This document shows, piece by piece, positions 14,706 to 27,410 of a stretch of DNA of 64,000 nucleotides. Location of the stretch: the sequence record NC_014260.1. One strand, 5' to 3'. Origin of the DNA: Escherichia phage IME08. How positions within the stretch are numbered: position 1 is the first letter of the stretch; each line of letters starts with the position of its first letter. The notes under the pieces are model-generated. The model ran no database searches. It had not been told where the DNA came from and saw only the letters and a program-made list of their open reading frames with translations. Made by a program: the position numbers and the translations under genes.

Positions 14706-15227
14706 TTAATAACCTCGGTCTTGACGAGCAAAGTTCTCGGCATTTTTCAGATAATACAACTTAAAGATTTCTTCAGCAGTCAGTCCAAGGCCTTGGAACA
14801 TATTCAGAACGAAATGGAGAATATCAATCATTTCAAATTTAATTTCGAGCTGGTCTTCAGGAGAGAGTTCGTCAATACGACGGTTACGGAATTCACCATG
14901 TTGAGCTTTCCAAGGCTTCCACACACTAGATGCGGCTTTCTCGCCATTGCTCATGCCACCAAGAGAAGTCAACAGTTCACGGAATTCGTCATCAATATAA
15001 TCTTTCTGGTTGCGAAGCCAATCGACAACTTGACCTGCAGTAGCCAGTTCATCGGGGTTAGAGTTAAATTCAGATTTTTCAGTAGCCAAACGGACCTGTA
15101 ATGATTTCTGCATATCAAGCATAACCTGCAGAGGGTCTTTATCTTCATGAATCAGAGCATTAAAATAAGCTTCCTCAGCTTTATCAACACCAGAAATCAA
15201 ACCACTACATTCGTTAAAAAATGCCAT
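14706..15227 (-). CDS. 56: dCTP pyrophosphatase (MazG-like dCTPase)
   Basis: 173 aa; position after soc; all-alpha MazG-like sequence with the EExxE signature pattern; size matches T4 gp56. Confidence 0.85.
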   Translation of the reverse strand: MAFFNECSGLISGVDKAEEAYFNALIHEDKDPLQVMLDMQKSLQVRLATEKSEFNSNPDELATAGQVVDWLRNQKDYIDDEFRELLTSLGGMSNGEKAASSVWKPWKAQHGEFRNRRIDELSPEDQLEIKFEMIDILHFVLNMFQGLGLTAEEIFKLYYLKNAENFARQDRGY

Positions 15228-15231
15228 TATA

Positions 15232-15888
15232 TTATTTCCTATTAAAGTTTTCTATCATTCGTCGATAACAAATATCAGGATATCCATTATCAACAGCTAT
15301 TTTATTAAATTTGGTGCGTTTAGGTTTATTATTGTAAACCCATAATTCATAAAGCATATCGTAACTATTCCATATTTCTCCGCGCCTAGGATTTGGCAAA
15401 CCATATCGAGGGGAATCTTTACCACTAAATCTTCCTTTTCTAGCTTTACTCATATTGGCCTTAGCTTCATCAGATATAATTTTATCTTTATGAGCCAGGC
15501 GCATTTTGGCTTTAGTTTCTTCAGGAGTTTTCATCCCTCTAATCCAGGAAGGTTTACCAAACATCGGGTTATTTTTTCCTGAAAATGCTTTAGCGTTATT
15601 TTCTCTTAACGTGGCTATAGTTCTACTAGTTAATTTAACTCCTTTATTATATCTCATTAAATTAACAGCATAATGTAGACCTTTTACTTCGGGATATATT
15701 TTTGTTAAAAGCCTATGAGCTACAAAGTGTTCTCTTGGCAATAAAGCAACTAAATTGTTTTTATCATCAGAACCATTCATACATCTAGGTATAACATGGT
15801 GTTCTTCCGTATAATATGATAAAGACCGCTTAGAACCTCTTAATTTTCCTTTAGATATTAATTCCTGGTATATTTTTTCGTAATTCAT
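15232..15888 (-). CDS. HNH homing endonuclease with NUMOD-like repeats
   Basis: 218 aa; HNH motif EEHHVIPRCMNGSDDKNNLVALLPREHFVAHR; repeated NPMFGK/KDSPRYG modules; AT-rich ORF inserted between gene 56 and gene 61. Confidence 0.8.
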   Translation of the reverse strand: MNYEKIYQELISKGKLRGSKRSLSYYTEEHHVIPRCMNGSDDKNNLVALLPREHFVAHRLLTKIYPEVKGLHYAVNLMRYNKGVKLTSRTIATLRENNAKAFSGKNNPMFGKPSWIRGMKTPEETKAKMRLAHKDKIISDEAKANMSKARKGRFSGKDSPRYGLPNPRRGEIWNSYDMLYELWVYNNKPKRTKFNKIAVDNGYPDICYRRMIENFNRK

Positions 15889-21304: not shown

Positions 21305-22472
21305 TCACAAAATTCATATTTTCTAAATCGTTTTCGATGTCAGCAGCGCTTTGGGTATTTCCACCTAATTTAACAGCAACGTTCTTAGAGACACGAGAGT
21401 TAATAAGGTCGTTCACTGCATCGTCAACTTCTTTAATAGAATTAATTGCACCGAGCTTATACTTATTCTCGATTGCTTCACGGAACGGGGCATGTTTAAA
21501 CAGCGGTCCCCAGAACTCAACACAATCGGTAGCTTTAGCACGCCATGCTTTTTCTTCTTGAACCATTTCGCCTGTGGTTTCGTCAAGGAATGCACGATTA
21601 TACCAACCAGCTTTAGGTTTCACGACAAAGCCGATATCAGTAGCCATTTCAAGCAATCCACTGAATGGGTCGATACCGCCTTCAAAGTTAACGGTGATAG
21701 GGAACGTTGATTTCTCTTTAACCGTACGAGATTTCTCAGCCTTCAGTGTAAAGTCATAACCTGTGAGCTCGGTACCATCTTTAACCTGACGTTTAGAGAT
21801 AAAGAACACGGTAGAAGCAGAGTACAGAATACCAGTACCACCACCCATAATCTCTTTAGGGTACATTCCACCAATTTCCATAGCCGTGTGGTTAATTGCT
21901 ACACAAGGGATGTCCTTGATGGTCAGATAAGGTGTTACGATACGGAACAGAGATTTCAGTGACTTAGCACGAGTCATATCACCTACAACTTTCTCGTTCA
22001 AAGCATCTTCAGTTTCTTTCTTAGAAGCGGTGTTACCAATGGAGTCGATAAAGATGATAACCTTTTCGCCACGAGTAATTTCTTCTAACTGGTTGGTCAT
22101 ATCAACCTTAAGCTGTTCGACTGATTGGATTGGTGTATGAACCACACGTTCCAGGTCAACACCCATCGAACGGAAATAAGATTCTGAAGCACCAAACTCA
22201 GAGTCATAGAACAAACAAATTGCGTCTGGATATTTCTTCATATATGCCGCAACCATGGTAAGTCCAAACAATGTTTTAAAGTGTTTAGATGGAGCAGCAA
22301 AGATTGTCAAACCTGATTGTAAGCCTGCATTCAACGCACCACCTAATGCAATATTCAACATAGGGATACGAGTAGGAACTTCGTCACGACCATTAAACAA
22401 TTTAGATTTGGTCAGGTCGGCAGTCATTTTAGAAGTAGAAGCTTTAATCAAACGGGATTTTAAATCGGACAT
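21291..22472 (-). CDS. uvsX: UvsX RecA-like recombinase
   Basis: 393 aa; first 15 aa MSDLKSRLIKASTSK identical to recalled T4 UvsX, homology throughout. Confidence 0.95.
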   Translation of the reverse strand: MSDLKSRLIKASTSKMTADLTKSKLFNGRDEVPTRIPMLNIALGGALNAGLQSGLTIFAAPSKHFKTLFGLTMVAAYMKKYPDAICLFYDSEFGASESYFRSMGVDLERVVHTPIQSVEQLKVDMTNQLEEITRGEKVIIFIDSIGNTASKKETEDALNEKVVGDMTRAKSLKSLFRIVTPYLTIKDIPCVAINHTAMEIGGMYPKEIMGGGTGILYSASTVFFISKRQVKDGTELTGYDFTLKAEKSRTVKEKSTFPITVNFEGGIDPFSGLLEMATDIGFVVKPKAGWYNRAFLDETTGEMVQEEKAWRAKATDCVEFWGPLFKHAPFREAIENKYKLGAINSIKEVDDAVNDLINSRVSKNVAVKLGGNTQSAADIENDLENMNFVSDHD

Positions 22473-22549: not shown

Positions 22550-22681
22550 TTATTTTATTCCTCGGTTGATAGCCTTATCGACTATCTTCCGGACTTCTCG
22601 TTTCTCGAGCCAGCATAATAATAACAAGGCTCCGAAAGAGAATAATAACAAAATTATAAAAAGCAATAAAGGACCTAGCAT
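22550..22681 (-). CDS. small single-pass membrane peptide
   Basis: 43 aa hand-translated (MLGPLLLFIILLLFSFGALLLLCWLEKRE...); GAGGA SD 6 nt upstream; ATG overlaps stop of the 297-aa ORF. Confidence 0.45.
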   Translation of the reverse strand: MLGPLLLFIILLLFSFGALLLLCWLEKREVRKIVDKAINRGIK

Positions 22682-23568
22682 ACTACGTCCTCATAACTTG
22701 GCATTTCGTGCTCAGAATGGATATGGGCACCGAAATAAATGAATTCAGCTAGACCAGGATGGAATACTAAACCAGGATTCTCATGATAAATGATATGAGG
22801 TCTTGATTTCAGAATCTGGTAATATTCAACCTTACTCGGTTTGAATTTAATAATCTCTACATCAGGACGATAGTCTTCGCGCTTAAATGAATCATTCGGG
22901 TCGGTGATATAAAGACGAGCACCTTCAGCTGCAGCTTGGTCTACAACTCTTTCGAATTGATAGCATTTATCTGAGATACGGAACGGATGGAAAATACCAT
23001 CAATTTTAATAGGCGCTAGACCTTCAGAGTAACGCTCAATTACTGCAGGATTAATTACCTTTTGGTCTACAAAAATCTTATCAGAGGATGCACCTCGTGA
23101 CACCAGGACGTCTTTCTGGCATTGATTCAGGACTGTAGTATAAATCGAACGTTCAACTGAAGACACGTCGATATCAATGAACTCATCAATATAATAACGA
23201 GGAACTTCAGGGTCCATTGTAATGTTAAAGTTGAATTGTACAGTCTGAGCACCATCATAACCTGTGATATCGGTTACTAATCCTGAGCAGTCATAGTATT
23301 CGATTAACGAATCAACGACGAACTCATTTTCAGACCAAAAATGTTTACGAGTTTCATAAGCATTTTCTTTATACCAAAGCGGCACAAAATTCAGTTCAGG
23401 AAATAATTCAATGCATTCTTTGATATCGCTCGAATTTCTAGGATAAGCCAGATAATCACCTGGGCGAGCACGGTTTAAATGGAGTTGAAAATTACCGTCC
23501 TTAAGGACGGCATATTCACCTGTTTCGTAACTACGCATACTGAAAATAGGAACGATAAACAGACTCAT
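22675..23568 (-). CDS. unknown protein occupying the beta-glucosyltransferase slot; candidate DNA-modifying transferase
   Basis: 297 aa between uvsX and gene 42 where T4 has beta-gt; no resemblance to recalled T4 beta-gt; function inferred from synteny only. Confidence 0.6.
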   Translation of the reverse strand: MSLFIVPIFSMRSYETGEYAVLKDGNFQLHLNRARPGDYLAYPRNSSDIKECIELFPELNFVPLWYKENAYETRKHFWSENEFVVDSLIEYYDCSGLVTDITGYDGAQTVQFNFNITMDPEVPRYYIDEFIDIDVSSVERSIYTTVLNQCQKDVLVSRGASSDKIFVDQKVINPAVIERYSEGLAPIKIDGIFHPFRISDKCYQFERVVDQAAAEGARLYITDPNDSFKREDYRPDVEIIKFKPSKVEYYQILKSRPHIIYHENPGLVFHPGLAEFIYFGAHIHSEHEMPSYEDVVC

Positions 23569-24263
23569 TTCAGGAATCCTCGAACGTAGTCAAAATCGCG
23601 TTCAAATACGTGTGCACTAACCATAGTATGGGAATATGTACCCAGACCAACACCACACTGTTCGGCAATAAAGGCCATCAGTTTACCTTGCAGATAGAAA
23701 TCCAGCTGCATAACGATAGCACAGTTCTGTGAACGCATATGAGTGTGTGCATACAGACGTCCATCACGAATATAATATGTTACCGAATCGGTGCATGGAT
23801 ATTCTAGGGACTCGTCAGAATCAAGGAGTGCTTGGTCTTGTTCTTGGAGAATTTGGAATACTACACGTCGTGAGTTTTCTTTTTCTTTAAGCTCTTTAAG
23901 TAAAGCTGGAAGTTGTGCGACAATGCGAGGGCCATAAAAGGTATTGAAATTCGCAGGCAATACGTCACTTTTCGGCTTATCAATGAACTTAGCAACATTA
24001 GGGTATTCCTTAAATGCTTCGGCGGCATCAGTACCACCGGAAATCATAAACTTCCAGAAAGATTCGGCATAATCATAGTTGATACGATTAATACGAGGGT
24101 CTGTGAATTTATAGGTGCTTGCATCCAGTACTTCTACCGAAGCAGAACCAATTTCATAACAACGGCCGATACGAGAATCAACTGCAAACTGTGGAGCTTC
24201 CAGGATTTCTTCGTTCATTTGCTTAAACGCGTTTTCAAAACTAACAGCGGTAATGTGTTTCAT
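23565..24263 (-). CDS. 42: dCMP hydroxymethylase-like (thymidylate synthase fold)
   Basis: 232 aa; catalytic-Cys region PCTDSVTYYIRDGRLYAHTHMRSQNCAIVMQLDFY parallels T4 gp42 MCTNTVQYLIRDKK..NMRSNDVVFGF. Confidence 0.75.
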   Translation of the reverse strand: MKHITAVSFENAFKQMNEEILEAPQFAVDSRIGRCYEIGSASVEVLDASTYKFTDPRINRINYDYAESFWKFMISGGTDAAEAFKEYPNVAKFIDKPKSDVLPANFNTFYGPRIVAQLPALLKELKEKENSRRVVFQILQEQDQALLDSDESLEYPCTDSVTYYIRDGRLYAHTHMRSQNCAIVMQLDFYLQGKLMAFIAEQCGVGLGTYSHTMVSAHVFERDFDYVRGFLK

Positions 24264-24796
24264 TTATTCACCTTATTTTCAATATATTCATTCAGACGTT
24301 TTAATTCTACCATATCGACGTTAAGCAAGTTATTATGGCCGTCGTGATTTAAGATTTTAAACACGTTTTCAAAACATGTTTCATATTGCCTGATAGTTAG
24401 GTTGAACTCATCTTTGGTTAATTTAATAAGGTCGTCTTCAAAGTCTTTATCCAGTGGATTACGGGTTAAAATAACCTCAATAATATTGAATTCAGATTTA
24501 AACCCTTTCCAATCTTCCAGTTCTACATAAGGGTCCATTTCACCACGAAGGAATCCAGAGTAAACAATATTACTAGGATATCCACGGTCTAAGATGTAGA
24601 CAAAATTAGGGTCTAAAAACTTATACAACGTCTCGACTAAAGCCTTGTCATTATCGGTCCCTAATGAAATGCATTTGCCATTAATCTTTTTAGGGAAATC
24701 AATAAGACGATATTTCTTATCAGATAAAAGTGATTCAATTAAAGTAGACTTCCCGGAATTATCCGGGCCGTCGATAACAATTATTTTTGGTTTCAC
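24260..24796 (-). CDS. P-loop kinase (dNMP/thymidylate-kinase-like or polynucleotide-kinase-like)
   Basis: 178 aa; Walker A IVIDGPDNSGKST at N-terminus. Confidence 0.7.
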   Translation of the reverse strand: MKPKIIVIDGPDNSGKSTLIESLLSDKKYRLIDFPKKINGKCISLGTDNDKALVETLYKFLDPNFVYILDRGYPSNIVYSGFLRGEMDPYVELEDWKGFKSEFNIIEVILTRNPLDKDFEDDLIKLTKDEFNLTIRQYETCFENVFKILNHDGHNNLLNVDMVELKRLNEYIENKVNK

Positions 24797-25191
24797 GGAT
24801 GATATGCCTTATAGGTTTCAAGAGTTCCTTCACGAACCATTTCTTTAAAGTGGTCAGGACGGATTGCTCGGTCATCGATGATAAAAGTATAACTCGGCTT
24901 ATGTGTAAGCAGATTATGATATTTCAATCCAATCTTTTCAAGGTTCTTAACCAATGCAGGAACTACTTCAACCAAGATTCGACCAGGGCCGCATGAAGTC
25001 ATACCACGAGCAGTGAACAATGTAATCTCGTACCCTTCATCATAAAGCTTATTAATCATAGACACCATTTCGGTGTCCGGTTTAAAGTTTTCGTAATCAC
25101 GGTCATGGTTCCAAATCGTGATTGTGTTATCGATGTCAAAACATAAATGAGGCTTATTTTCTACTCGATGTGACATTAAATTTTCTTCCAT
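24793..25191 (-). CDS. HAD-superfamily phosphatase
   Basis: 132 aa; motif I CFDIDNTIT (DxDxT) near N-terminus. Confidence 0.7.
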   Translation of the reverse strand: MEENLMSHRVENKPHLCFDIDNTITIWNHDRDYENFKPDTEMVSMINKLYDEGYEITLFTARGMTSCGPGRILVEVVPALVKNLEKIGLKYHNLLTHKPSYTFIIDDRAIRPDHFKEMVREGTLETYKAYHP

Positions 25192-26849
25192 TGTTTGTGG
25201 AGTTCAGTAGAACCTGTAGGTTTATATTTTACACCAGTTTCTTGGTCAAGCAAAACCCACTTATCAGGACAACGAGTGATAATTTGAGCCGTGATAGGGT
25301 CGCGAACTTCATCAACGAATTCACCTGTGATAAGCTTACGCTTACGAGGATGCCGCTTCAGCAGCACACTCAGTTGATATAAACCATTGTAATAAGCACC
25401 CAGAGCTTTCAGAGGGTTATTTTTAAAGTAACCTGCCAATGCCATCCAGATAACAGCAATCCAGAGCTTGTGCTTAAATGTACACATTGGAATATCATCT
25501 AATGGCATAACCTTTTCAATATCAACGAATACACGAGTTCCGTTACGAGTTAAGCCACCCCATAGAGGGTCGGAGTTAAATTTGTCATAACCATCGATAG
25601 AATAAAGCACCTTAGCTTCGTCATAAATCGCAGGGCCTTTAGAACTATTACCAAAATAACCACGTGGGTCGATGATTTTAATATCACCTTCGTCCGACAA
25701 CATAATATTACTGTAGTGCGGGTCACCATGAATAAGTTGGTACGGTTCTTTATGTTCAGACAGAATTTCTAAGGCGTGACGAAGAAGTTTTTCTGGGTCA
25801 CCTACCTTAAAGTCATTGACATGGGTAATGCCCTGTGGAGCAAAGCCTTCAATCAATCCAGCAATAGAAGCATTACGAATAAGGACCTTGTCCAATACTT
25901 CTTTCTTAACATCAGAATACCATTGCTCATCAGATGGATTATCGATAGTCCCACCGAATGAACGCAATGCACTAATGACCTTATAAACCATGAGGACTTT
26001 AGTTTCTTTAGACATAAACCGGTAGGCATCTGCCATAGTACGACCAAAGATACGTTCCATTTTAATGAATTCACCTGGAGCAAAGTCTACAATGCTCGGA
26101 ACGAATTCAGAATCAATAGAATTGTACCAATTGATTTCTTTAGATTGGATTTCTTTACCTAATTCGTTGGTAGGTACTTTAATAGCCAGATTCTCAGTGA
26201 ACTCTAATTTATTAAATTCACGGTTAATTTCAGAATCTTCATGAGCCTTAGCCAGTTTCAGTTTGTCACCGACATCAACTACAAAGTCCAGCTTACGTTC
26301 AGTCAAATGGACCATTGAATCCAGATTGTCAGCAAGGTCTTCGCCGTAATTAGAACCGTTAAAACCTGTCCAATTGGCTACTTGATACAAACCAACTACA
26401 CCGCCACCGGTACCAATTTCACGCAGGTACGGTTCTTCAAATGTAAAACGACAGTCGGTCCCATAGGTATAACAGTAGTCGTTATCCCACTCAACTTTAT
26501 GGCCCTCAGGAATGATGTCACACCAGTTAAACAGGACATTGTGCCCGATGATATCTTCAGCAATGCAATCGATAGCATGAGCTGAGCCATTGGCAACATC
26601 TACGTTACGAATAGTGAATTTAGGCTTATCGCTGGTAATCATGTTAATGGATTTAATATAACCCTTAACGAGGTCATTAAATTTGCTATGAATTACCAAA
26701 ATGATTTCATCTGATTGGTTACTATACAAATCATACAAATGTTTTAGTACTGTATGTTGTTTGTAGTTAACCAATACCTTCGGGATTTCGTTAGTAATTG
26801 GATACAACCGTGAGCCAAGACCCGCGCCTAAAATAACAACCTTTTTCAT
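25176..26849 (-). CDS. bifunctional nucleotidyltransferase / APH-choline-kinase-like kinase
   Basis: N-terminal ILGAGLGSRL sugar-phosphate nucleotidyltransferase signature; C-terminal LIHGDPHYSNIM...IIDPRGY kinase motifs; start set at MKKVVILGAG with GAGGAA SD. Confidence 0.8.
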   Translation of the reverse strand: MKKVVILGAGLGSRLYPITNEIPKVLVNYKQHTVLKHLYDLYSNQSDEIILVIHSKFNDLVKGYIKSINMITSDKPKFTIRNVDVANGSAHAIDCIAEDIIGHNVLFNWCDIIPEGHKVEWDNDYCYTYGTDCRFTFEEPYLREIGTGGGVVGLYQVANWTGFNGSNYGEDLADNLDSMVHLTERKLDFVVDVGDKLKLAKAHEDSEINREFNKLEFTENLAIKVPTNELGKEIQSKEINWYNSIDSEFVPSIVDFAPGEFIKMERIFGRTMADAYRFMSKETKVLMVYKVISALRSFGGTIDNPSDEQWYSDVKKEVLDKVLIRNASIAGLIEGFAPQGITHVNDFKVGDPEKLLRHALEILSEHKEPYQLIHGDPHYSNIMLSDEGDIKIIDPRGYFGNSSKGPAIYDEAKVLYSIDGYDKFNSDPLWGGLTRNGTRVFVDIEKVMPLDDIPMCTFKHKLWIAVIWMALAGYFKNNPLKALGAYYNGLYQLSVLLKRHPRKRKLITGEFVDEVRDPITAQIITRCPDKWVLLDQETGVKYKPTGSTELHKQWKKI

Positions 26850-26909
26850 TATCTGTTCCTCAAGTGAATGTAGGTACATTATACACTATTTTTAATAAAT
26901 TGATATTGC

Positions 26910-27410
26910 TTAAATCTTATCTTTACCGATTTCAATGCACTGTTCTATTGCTGCTGGCACTTTGGTCTTGAGCTTATTGATTTGTTTCTTATAATCACGG
27001 GCCTTATCGAAGCTCTCGGTTTCGAGCATTTCGTAATAACGAGCCTCGTGGATGGAAATCTGTAGATTGATATGGTTTACGCACATCGCATACAGTTTCT
27101 GCTTTTTGTACAAATCATCTTGGCGCTTCATTTCTGCCTGGTGTTTGGCTAGTACCGCTTCACGCTTAGACTCTTGTTCACGTTGGAATTCAATTTCTCG
27201 TTGAGCATATTTTGCACAGTTATTACCGCATTGATTATTAGCTCGGGTATACACAAGTCCAGAACCTGCACGGAATTTCATTTCGCCATCGAATTGTTTC
27301 TGTTCAGCTGCGATACGAGCTTTACCGACTTCATCAGCCGAAACTGCATCACCATATTGGACCGCGCAACCTGATAGGAGCATACTCATTGCGATAATTA
27401 ACTTTTTCAT
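26910..27410 (-). CDS. putative lipoprotein
   Basis: 166 aa; signal peptide with lipobox LSGC; coiled-coil-like charged body. Confidence 0.6.
   Translation of the reverse strand: MKKLIIAMSMLLSGCAVQYGDAVSADEVGKARIAAEQKQFDGEMKFRAGSGLVYTRANNQCGNNCAKYAQREIEFQREQESKREAVLAKHQAEMKRQDDLYKKQKLYAMCVNHINLQISIHEARYYEMLETESFDKARDYKKQINKLKTKVPAAIEQCIEIGKDKI

Follow-up and report, generated by a model that had tools for sequence, protein, structure and literature searches.

The window analysed here, a stretch of 64,000 nucleotides from Escherichia phage IME08 (NC_014260.1), belongs to a T4-like phage; across its length it is 90-97% identical at the nucleotide level to the Dhakavirus Escherichia phage AnYang, and the Dhakaviruses JS98, JS10 and Bp7 are likewise close to it. 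Here the genes follow one another on the minus strand in the order gp43 (DNA polymerase), imm, a small lipoprotein-like open reading frame (ORF), the gene that is our main subject, a HAD-family phosphatase, a P-loop thymidylate-kinase-like (TMK-like) protein, a homologue of thymidylate synthase (ThyA), a 297-amino-acid protein of PHROG 3891, and uvsX. Our main subject (positions 25176-26849) encodes, in one uninterrupted ORF, a protein of 557 amino acids in which a nucleotidyltransferase and a kinase are joined, and which is called the fusion below. By orthology the fusion is the Dhakavirus member of the AfhE-type family of bifunctional enzymes, which includes RB69 ORF53_52c, DLP3 gp82 and HY126 AfhE, and we consider it quite likely to provide the activated sugar with which 5-hydroxycytosine in the phage DNA is arabinosylated.

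The fusion gene and its domains

The N-terminal domain of the fusion (amino acids 1 to ~205, positions 26235..26849, minus strand) has the GT-A/RmlA-like fold of sugar-1-phosphate nucleotidyltransferases of the RmlA/MurU/LicC type. It is followed by a domain with the APH/choline-kinase, i.e., protein-kinase-like, fold (amino acids ~206-495, positions 25365..26234, minus strand), and by a C-terminal tail of ~60 residues (amino acids 496-557 and the stop codon, together positions 25176..25364, minus strand). Both domains score above the curated Pfam thresholds: NTP_transferase reaches 34 bits where 21.2 are required, and APH 25.5 bits where 23.2 are. The N-terminal domain has an intact GxGxRL...PK signature and acidic metal-binding residues; in the kinase domain the HGDxxxxN catalytic loop is intact, and the Asp of the IDPRG motif, which binds Mg, and the Lys-Glu pair are present. 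In an alignment of 104 homologues, the most distant of them at about 30% identity, the nucleotidyltransferase residues G10, R14, L15, P23, K24, D111, D192, G194, D195 and K198 are invariant, and so are K224, E238, G375, D376, N381 and D394-P-R-G of the kinase; H374 is kept in at least 90% of the sequences. Five basic residues that are not part of the canonical APH motifs, R210, K321, R325, R396 and K413, are invariant as well. The AlphaFold model has a predicted local distance difference test score (pLDDT) of 95 and a two-domain predicted template modelling score (pTM) of 0.91, and MurU, LicC and LicA are among its top structural matches. A sequence search of the PDB found no close solved structure for the fusion, the best match being LicC with an E-value of 0.001; for two neighbours, the ThyA homologue and the phosphatase, near-identical entries exist (see below). 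The preliminary description of this DNA had proposed that a nucleotidyltransferase and an APH/choline-kinase-like kinase are combined in one genuine protein; the profile scores, the structural matches and the invariance of the catalytic Asp and Lys residues all bear this out, and the motifs are not spurious.

The tail is modelled with short β-strands at a pLDDT of 86-93. It is found in the versions of the protein from T4-like phages, and is missing from most of the distant homologues in the alignment, including fusion proteins with four domains (see below).

The longest ORF that can be delimited mechanically, 25176..26879, would give a product of 567 amino acids. We take the ATG at 26849 as the true start, because a Shine-Dalgarno sequence, GAGGAA, lies 8 nucleotides upstream of it, because the earlier ATG falls within a TATAATG box, and because all homologues, as well as the PHROG profile, begin with MKK. 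The TATAAT box itself (within positions 26855-26885, minus strand) is 24-29 nucleotides upstream of the start codon of the fusion, and the spurious upstream ATG belongs to it. A scan for consensus promoters called no promoter at this box, and a scan for promoters and terminators between positions 22400 and 27800 returned 19 promoter-like sites, where 17.5 were expected, with no enrichment over shuffled sequence.

Several better-known names can be set aside. Some phage records label the protein as GlmU; the GlmU model TIGR01173 matches only the first ~100 residues, and its score of 21.8 bits falls short of the cut-off of 366.85; the C-terminal half is folded as a kinase and contains no left-handed β-helix acetyltransferase domain. 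MurU is rejected as well, since the NCBIfam model of that enzyme gives 24 bits against a cut-off of 370. The fusion is not HldE either: its folds are APH-like and RmlA-like, and neither of the Pfam families of HldE-type domains, the ribokinase-like PfkB family and the cytidylyltransferase-like family, was detected in it at E <= 0.1.

Orthologues and neighbouring genes

The match of the fusion to PHROG 4098 covers profile positions 1-559 of 559 (3.9e-269). Its alignment with XAN60479.1 of phage HY126 (phage-collection record PP658200.1) is colinear and full-length, with 43% identity over 557/562 amino acids and an E-value of 1e-145, and the divergence is even along the chain: 45% identity in the N-terminal domain, 42% in the kinase, and 48% in the tail. 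XAN60479.1 is the sole nucleotidyltransferase-kinase protein of the HY126 cluster, and shares 96% identity with Bas46_0146, a protein whose annotation reads UDP-arabinose biosynthesis enzyme; taking this identity together with the architecture and position of XAN60479.1, we infer that it is AfhE. The fusion shares with AfhE, RB69 ORF53_52c (gp52:53), DLP3 gp82 and Bas46_0146 the two-domain architecture, the catalytic residues, and a length that agrees to within ~5 amino acids. The genomic slot and the neighbours are also shared, namely the HAD phosphatase, the synthase of 5-hydroxy-dCMP (5hodCMP), an arabinosyltransferase and the TMK-like kinase. The Dhakavirus cluster differs in the placement of the TMK-like gene, and in being without an isomerase for D-arabinose 5-phosphate, a protein similar to U32 peptidases, and a second arabinosyltransferase similar to RB69 gp3.

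The fusion is not new: earlier publications cover the family, its pathway and the phages in which it occurs, among them Dhakaviruses. Thomas et al. (2018) suggested that the UDP-arabinose used to modify RB69 DNA comes from RB69 ORF53_52c acting with an arabinose-5-phosphate isomerase, and listed a full-length homologue in IME08, a close relative of JS98 (PMC6024577). Lee et al. (2026) showed the modification in RB69 and DLP3 to be mono- to tri-arabinosylated 5-hydroxycytosine, with the thymidylate-synthase homologue making 5hodCMP and with UDP-arabinofuranose as the donor used in vitro by the DLP3 glycosyltransferases; they described RB69 gp52:53 and DLP3 gp82 as an N-terminal nucleotidyltransferase with a C-terminal kinase, and named Dhakaviruses among the lineages with a syntenic cluster (PMC13326640). 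By the account given there of the work of He et al. (2026, in Nat Chem Biol), the AfhE enzyme of HY126 converts D-arabinose 5-phosphate to arabinofuranose 1,5-bisphosphate, the HAD protein AfhF is a Mg-dependent phosphatase that removes one phosphate from this intermediate, and the N-terminal domain of AfhE then makes UDP-arabinose (PMC13326640). The family was flagged in 2018 (PMC6024577) and, on the same second-hand account, was biochemically characterised in 2026.

The gene directly downstream of the fusion (24793..25191, minus strand) encodes a HAD-family phosphatase, an orthologue of RB69 gp51 and of the protein that we take to be AfhF. Its likely start is the ATG at 25176, in a TAATG overlap with the stop codon of the fusion, as in the HY126 annotation; the ATG at 25191 is an alternative. 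The product is 64% identical to HY126 XAN60478 and Bas46_0145, matches PDB entry 9iqw ('Capsule biosynthesis protein', 134 amino acids) with an E-value of 7e-55, scores 54 bits with the capsule phosphatase model TIGR01689, and has a DIDNT motif, which conforms to DxDxT. It is predicted to convert arabinofuranose 1,5-bisphosphate to arabinofuranose 1-phosphate. PHROG 1238 and many RefSeq phage records label this protein 'phosphoheptose isomerase'; in view of the HAD motif and the matches to TIGR01689 and 9iqw, the label looks like a propagated misannotation.

The ThyA homologue (23565..24263, minus strand), which records of relatives call thymidylate synthase or dCMP hydroxymethylase, is a predicted 5hodCMP synthase. 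It is 78-79% identical to Bas46_0142 and to the HY126 homologue, and matches PDB entries 9iqu/9iqc/9ir2 with an E-value of 2e-124. An ungapped HMMER alignment to MilA sets RSQN opposite RAND, which places Asn at the position equivalent to Asp169 of ThyA; BLAST against an approximate E. coli ThyA sequence opens a gap at the D169 position, so that this second alignment is ambiguous. The D169N change is diagnostic of 5hodCMP synthases (PMC13326640). On the strength of the ~79% identity to the Mosigvirus enzyme and of Asn in place of Asp169, the phage should make 5-hydroxycytosine, not 5-hydroxymethylcytosine.

Next to it lies the predicted DNA arabinosyltransferase 1 (22675..23568, minus strand; PHROG 3891, 1.3e-158), an orthologue of RB69 gp46:47, which aligns from end to end with Bas46_0141 and HY126 XAN60474 at 67% identity. 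A role as a DNA arabinosyltransferase has been proposed for the RB69 and DLP3 orthologues (PMC13326640), and the enzyme encoded here would use UDP-arabinofuranose made by the fusion. No Pfam family matches this protein, and the sequence search of the PDB found no match for either it or the TMK-like protein. The latter (24260..24796, minus strand; PHROG 761, 2.4e-39) is 37% identical to Bas46_0140 and HY126 XAN60473, and is the counterpart of RB69 gp45, labelled 'nucleotide kinase' in Table 1 of PMC13326640; its gene is located here between those of the ThyA homologue and the phosphatase, and in Mosigviruses next to uvsX.

The interval between gp43 and uvsX is a known variable island of DNA-modification genes (PMC6024577), in which T4 carries gene 42 and beta-gt. 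The idea, raised in the preliminary description, that an activation enzyme of this kind is unusual within a replication module does not hold, as the gene sits in this known island, beside genes for the 5hodCMP synthase and the DNA arabinosyltransferase. On the other side of the fusion, between it and imm, is an ORF of 166 amino acids (26910-27410, minus strand; PHROG 1754) with an N-terminal lipoprotein-like signal, MKKLIIAMSMLLSGC; its slot is the place of the isomerase gene in Mosigviruses.

Proposed pathway and the order of its steps

The reaction sequence that we favour relies on orthology to AfhE and AfhF, and the chemistry of its first three steps is assigned from the biochemistry reported for these orthologues as relayed in PMC13326640. 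The C-terminal APH-like domain of the fusion would use ATP to phosphorylate the anomeric carbon, C1, of D-arabinose 5-phosphate, giving arabinofuranose 1,5-bisphosphate; the phosphatase encoded by the overlapping downstream gene would take off the 5-phosphate to leave arabinofuranose 1-phosphate; and the N-terminal domain of the fusion would join D-arabinofuranose 1-phosphate with UTP, presumably the nucleotide used by this fusion, to form UDP-arabinofuranose and pyrophosphate. The single adjacent glycosyltransferase may then move arabinose to the 5-hydroxyl group of 5-hydroxycytosine, which would be made as 5hodCMP by the adjacent ThyA homologue and incorporated at replication. DNA modified in this way is expected to resist host nucleases.

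The assignment to this pathway finds independent support in gene fusions and in gene neighbourhood. Two metagenomic proteins of 922-946 amino acids, P0075 and P0085, each unite HAD, SIS (isomerase-type), nucleotidyltransferase and kinase domains, which would amount to the whole sugar-activation pathway in a single polypeptide; and on a 315-kb contig, a SIS gene directly precedes the gene for a distant homologue of the fusion. After the gene for P0085 (L008 14-2854) comes one for a sulfotransferase; Asn, Lys and Ile are abundant in the sequences.

Similar logic is known from the ADP-heptose pathway, where an isomerase makes the sugar phosphate, the bifunctional HldE adds the anomeric phosphate, the distal phosphate is taken off by the HAD phosphatase GmhB, and the other domain of HldE makes the nucleoside diphosphate (NDP) sugar. 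The likeness of the fusion and its phosphatase to HldE and GmhB is one of pathway only: HldE consists of a ribokinase-like kinase and a cytidylyltransferase-like adenylyltransferase, which are not homologous to the domains of the fusion, and it acts on a heptose with ADP as the nucleotide, not on a pentose with UDP. Two other systems, AmgK with MurU and LicA with LicC, consist of the same pair of folds as the fusion, an APH-like kinase and a small RmlA-like nucleotidyltransferase; there, however, the two are separate proteins, the substrates are free sugars or amino-alcohols, and no phosphatase acts between them.

In a rival order of steps, the phosphatase would first make free D-arabinose from arabinose 5-phosphate, the kinase, behaving like AmgK or NahK, would form arabinose 1-phosphate, and the N-terminal domain would make UDP-arabinose. 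AmgK and MurU carry out just such a salvage of free sugar, and LicA, APH and FN3K, to which the kinase domain is structurally related, act on non-phosphorylated substrates with a hydroxyl group. The labels given in Table 1 of PMC13326640 to the proteins of RB69 and DLP3 also still read 'dephosphorylates Araf5p to Ara' and 'phosphorylates Ara to Araf1p'. We nevertheless regard this order as unlikely, as the closest structural match reported for the orthologues of the phosphatase is heptose-1,7-bisphosphate 7-phosphatase (PMC13326640), which fits a bisphosphate substrate. A related suggestion of the preliminary description, that a kinase-nucleotidyltransferase fusion makes an NDP-linked product directly from a free sugar or amino-alcohol, survives in part: an NDP-sugar is the expected product, and arabinose was among the candidates named, but the substrate reported for AfhE is a phosphosugar, and the AfhF phosphatase step intervenes between the two activities, as far as the work is relayed in PMC13326640.

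The Dhakavirus version of the cluster

Proteins from Mosigviruses were compared by tblastn, at E <= 1, with the 64-kb window and with the whole 169-kb AnYang genome. The arabinose-5-phosphate isomerase (SIS domain, RB69 gp55 type) and the second arabinosyltransferase (RB69 gp3 type) had no match in either; the U32-like protein (RB69 gp50 type) had none in the AnYang genome and, in the window, only two fragments at chance level, with E-values of 0.65 and 0.80. The Dhakavirus cluster is, on this evidence, a minimal, five-gene version without the isomerase, which is a feature of the Mosigvirus-type modification system and not of the enzyme family. In the phage database, 367 records contain the fusion and 276 the isomerase; among the matches to the latter there are hardly any of the Klebsiella phages with the fusion.

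E. coli makes arabinose 5-phosphate for the synthesis of 3-deoxy-D-manno-octulosonate (Kdo) through KdsD and GutQ, and since the phage is without an isomerase of its own, arabinose 5-phosphate is presumably drawn from this host pathway. With a single arabinosyltransferase encoded, one arabinose is probably added per cytosine, as reported for Shewanella phage Thanatos, which likewise has a single enzyme of this type and is mono-arabinosylated. The minimal cluster of Dhakaviruses predicts both dependence on host arabinose 5-phosphate and mono-arabinosylation.

Thanatos also provides a homologue of the fusion, TH1_060 (P0015), with the same architecture and 44% identity by BLASTP; it is genetically essential for propagation of that phage, which differs from Dhakaviruses in its host and lineage. 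Purified TH1_060, however, had no detectable activity in a xylose-1-phosphate assay, and its authors assigned no in vitro activity to it. This result counts against the assignment of the fusion to UDP-arabinofuranose synthesis. So do the identity of only 43% to the Mosigvirus enzyme that has been characterised; the absence of the isomerase, which accompanies the fusion in most other lineages and without which the source and identity of the sugar are slightly less certain; and the fact that the accessible literature yielded no chemical analysis of DNA from Dhakaviruses.

Some of these points might instead indicate that the substrate has changed in the clade of Dhakavirus, Klebsiella and Proteus phages, where the fusion might act on another pentose or sugar phosphate of the host, such as ribose 5-phosphate, and where the DNA might carry a different sugar or a cytosine glycan not yet described. 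The clade is without the isomerase and the U32-like protein of the phage, and its version of the fusion is 43-49% identical to those of all other clades, having diverged more from the Mosigvirus protein (43%) than its neighbours have (64-78%). The catalytic loop of the kinase reads HGDPHYSN here, and HGDPNFSN in homologues of 38-70% identity (N378H, F379Y). Yet only 22 positions have substitutions specific to the clade; most of these are conservative and several recur in distant homologues, among which positions 378 and 379 vary too, so that a specificity switch is not supported by them. The arabinosyltransferase and the 5hodCMP synthase are close orthologues of their Mosigvirus counterparts, and with arabinose 5-phosphate produced by E. 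coli itself the isomerase is dispensable. The figure of cytosine arabinosylation clusters in PMC13326640 also puts Dhakaviruses with the predicted makers of 5-hydroxycytosine. A change of substrate seems to us improbable for these reasons; a milder version of the idea, total reliance on the host pool of Kdo precursors supplied by KdsD and GutQ, would, if true, couple the modification of phage DNA to lipopolysaccharide metabolism of the host.

An amino-alcohol pathway, in which choline or ethanolamine would be phosphorylated and then converted to a CDP-alcohol as by LicA and LicC, is far less plausible still: the sequence identity is only 11-15%, RmlA, GalU and MurU score equally well or better, and the context is a cluster for DNA glycosylation that encodes a glycosyltransferase and a HAD sugar-phosphate phosphatase, joined in relatives by a SIS isomerase that is either fused or adjacent. 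The orthologue, moreover, makes UDP-arabinose according to the biochemistry relayed in PMC13326640. There is practically no chance that the fusion is an artefact of two separate genes joined by a sequencing frameshift, a reading that could draw on the two ORFs (052c and 053c, i.e., ORF052c/053c) of the RB69 reference record and is refuted by tblastn, in which 366 of the 367 phage records have the gene essentially full length and in one piece, by the identical 557-amino-acid protein in GenBank (KIT01_044, in a cluster of 59 sequences), by the two-domain pTM, and by RB69 itself, where the split is a sequencing error, re-sequencing having given one ORF of 561 amino acids and expression a single band of ~64 kDa (PMC6024577).

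Returning to the UDP-arabinofuranose pathway, its interest lies in the protection that arabinosyl-5-hydroxycytosine reportedly gives T4-like phages against restriction enzymes and other defences aimed at DNA. This is relevant to candidates for phage therapy, for which many Dhakaviruses have been isolated, and to the enzymatic synthesis of UDP-arabinofuranose. The locus itself adds little to what was published, beyond the predictions made above for the minimal cluster and the opportunity to correct annotations such as 'hypothetical protein', 'GlmU', 'phosphoheptose isomerase' and 'thymidylate synthase'.

Elsewhere in the window, the segment 14703-15923 has no megablast match to AnYang, while the flanks on both sides match at 94-97%. 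Inside it are a gp56-like dCTPase/dUTPase (14706-15227), 76% identical to that of AnYang at the amino acid level, and an ORF of 218 amino acids (15232-15888) with a NUMOD3 homing-endonuclease motif; in AnYang, SegF is located on the opposite side of gene 56. The segment looks like a mosaic patch associated with a homing endonuclease.

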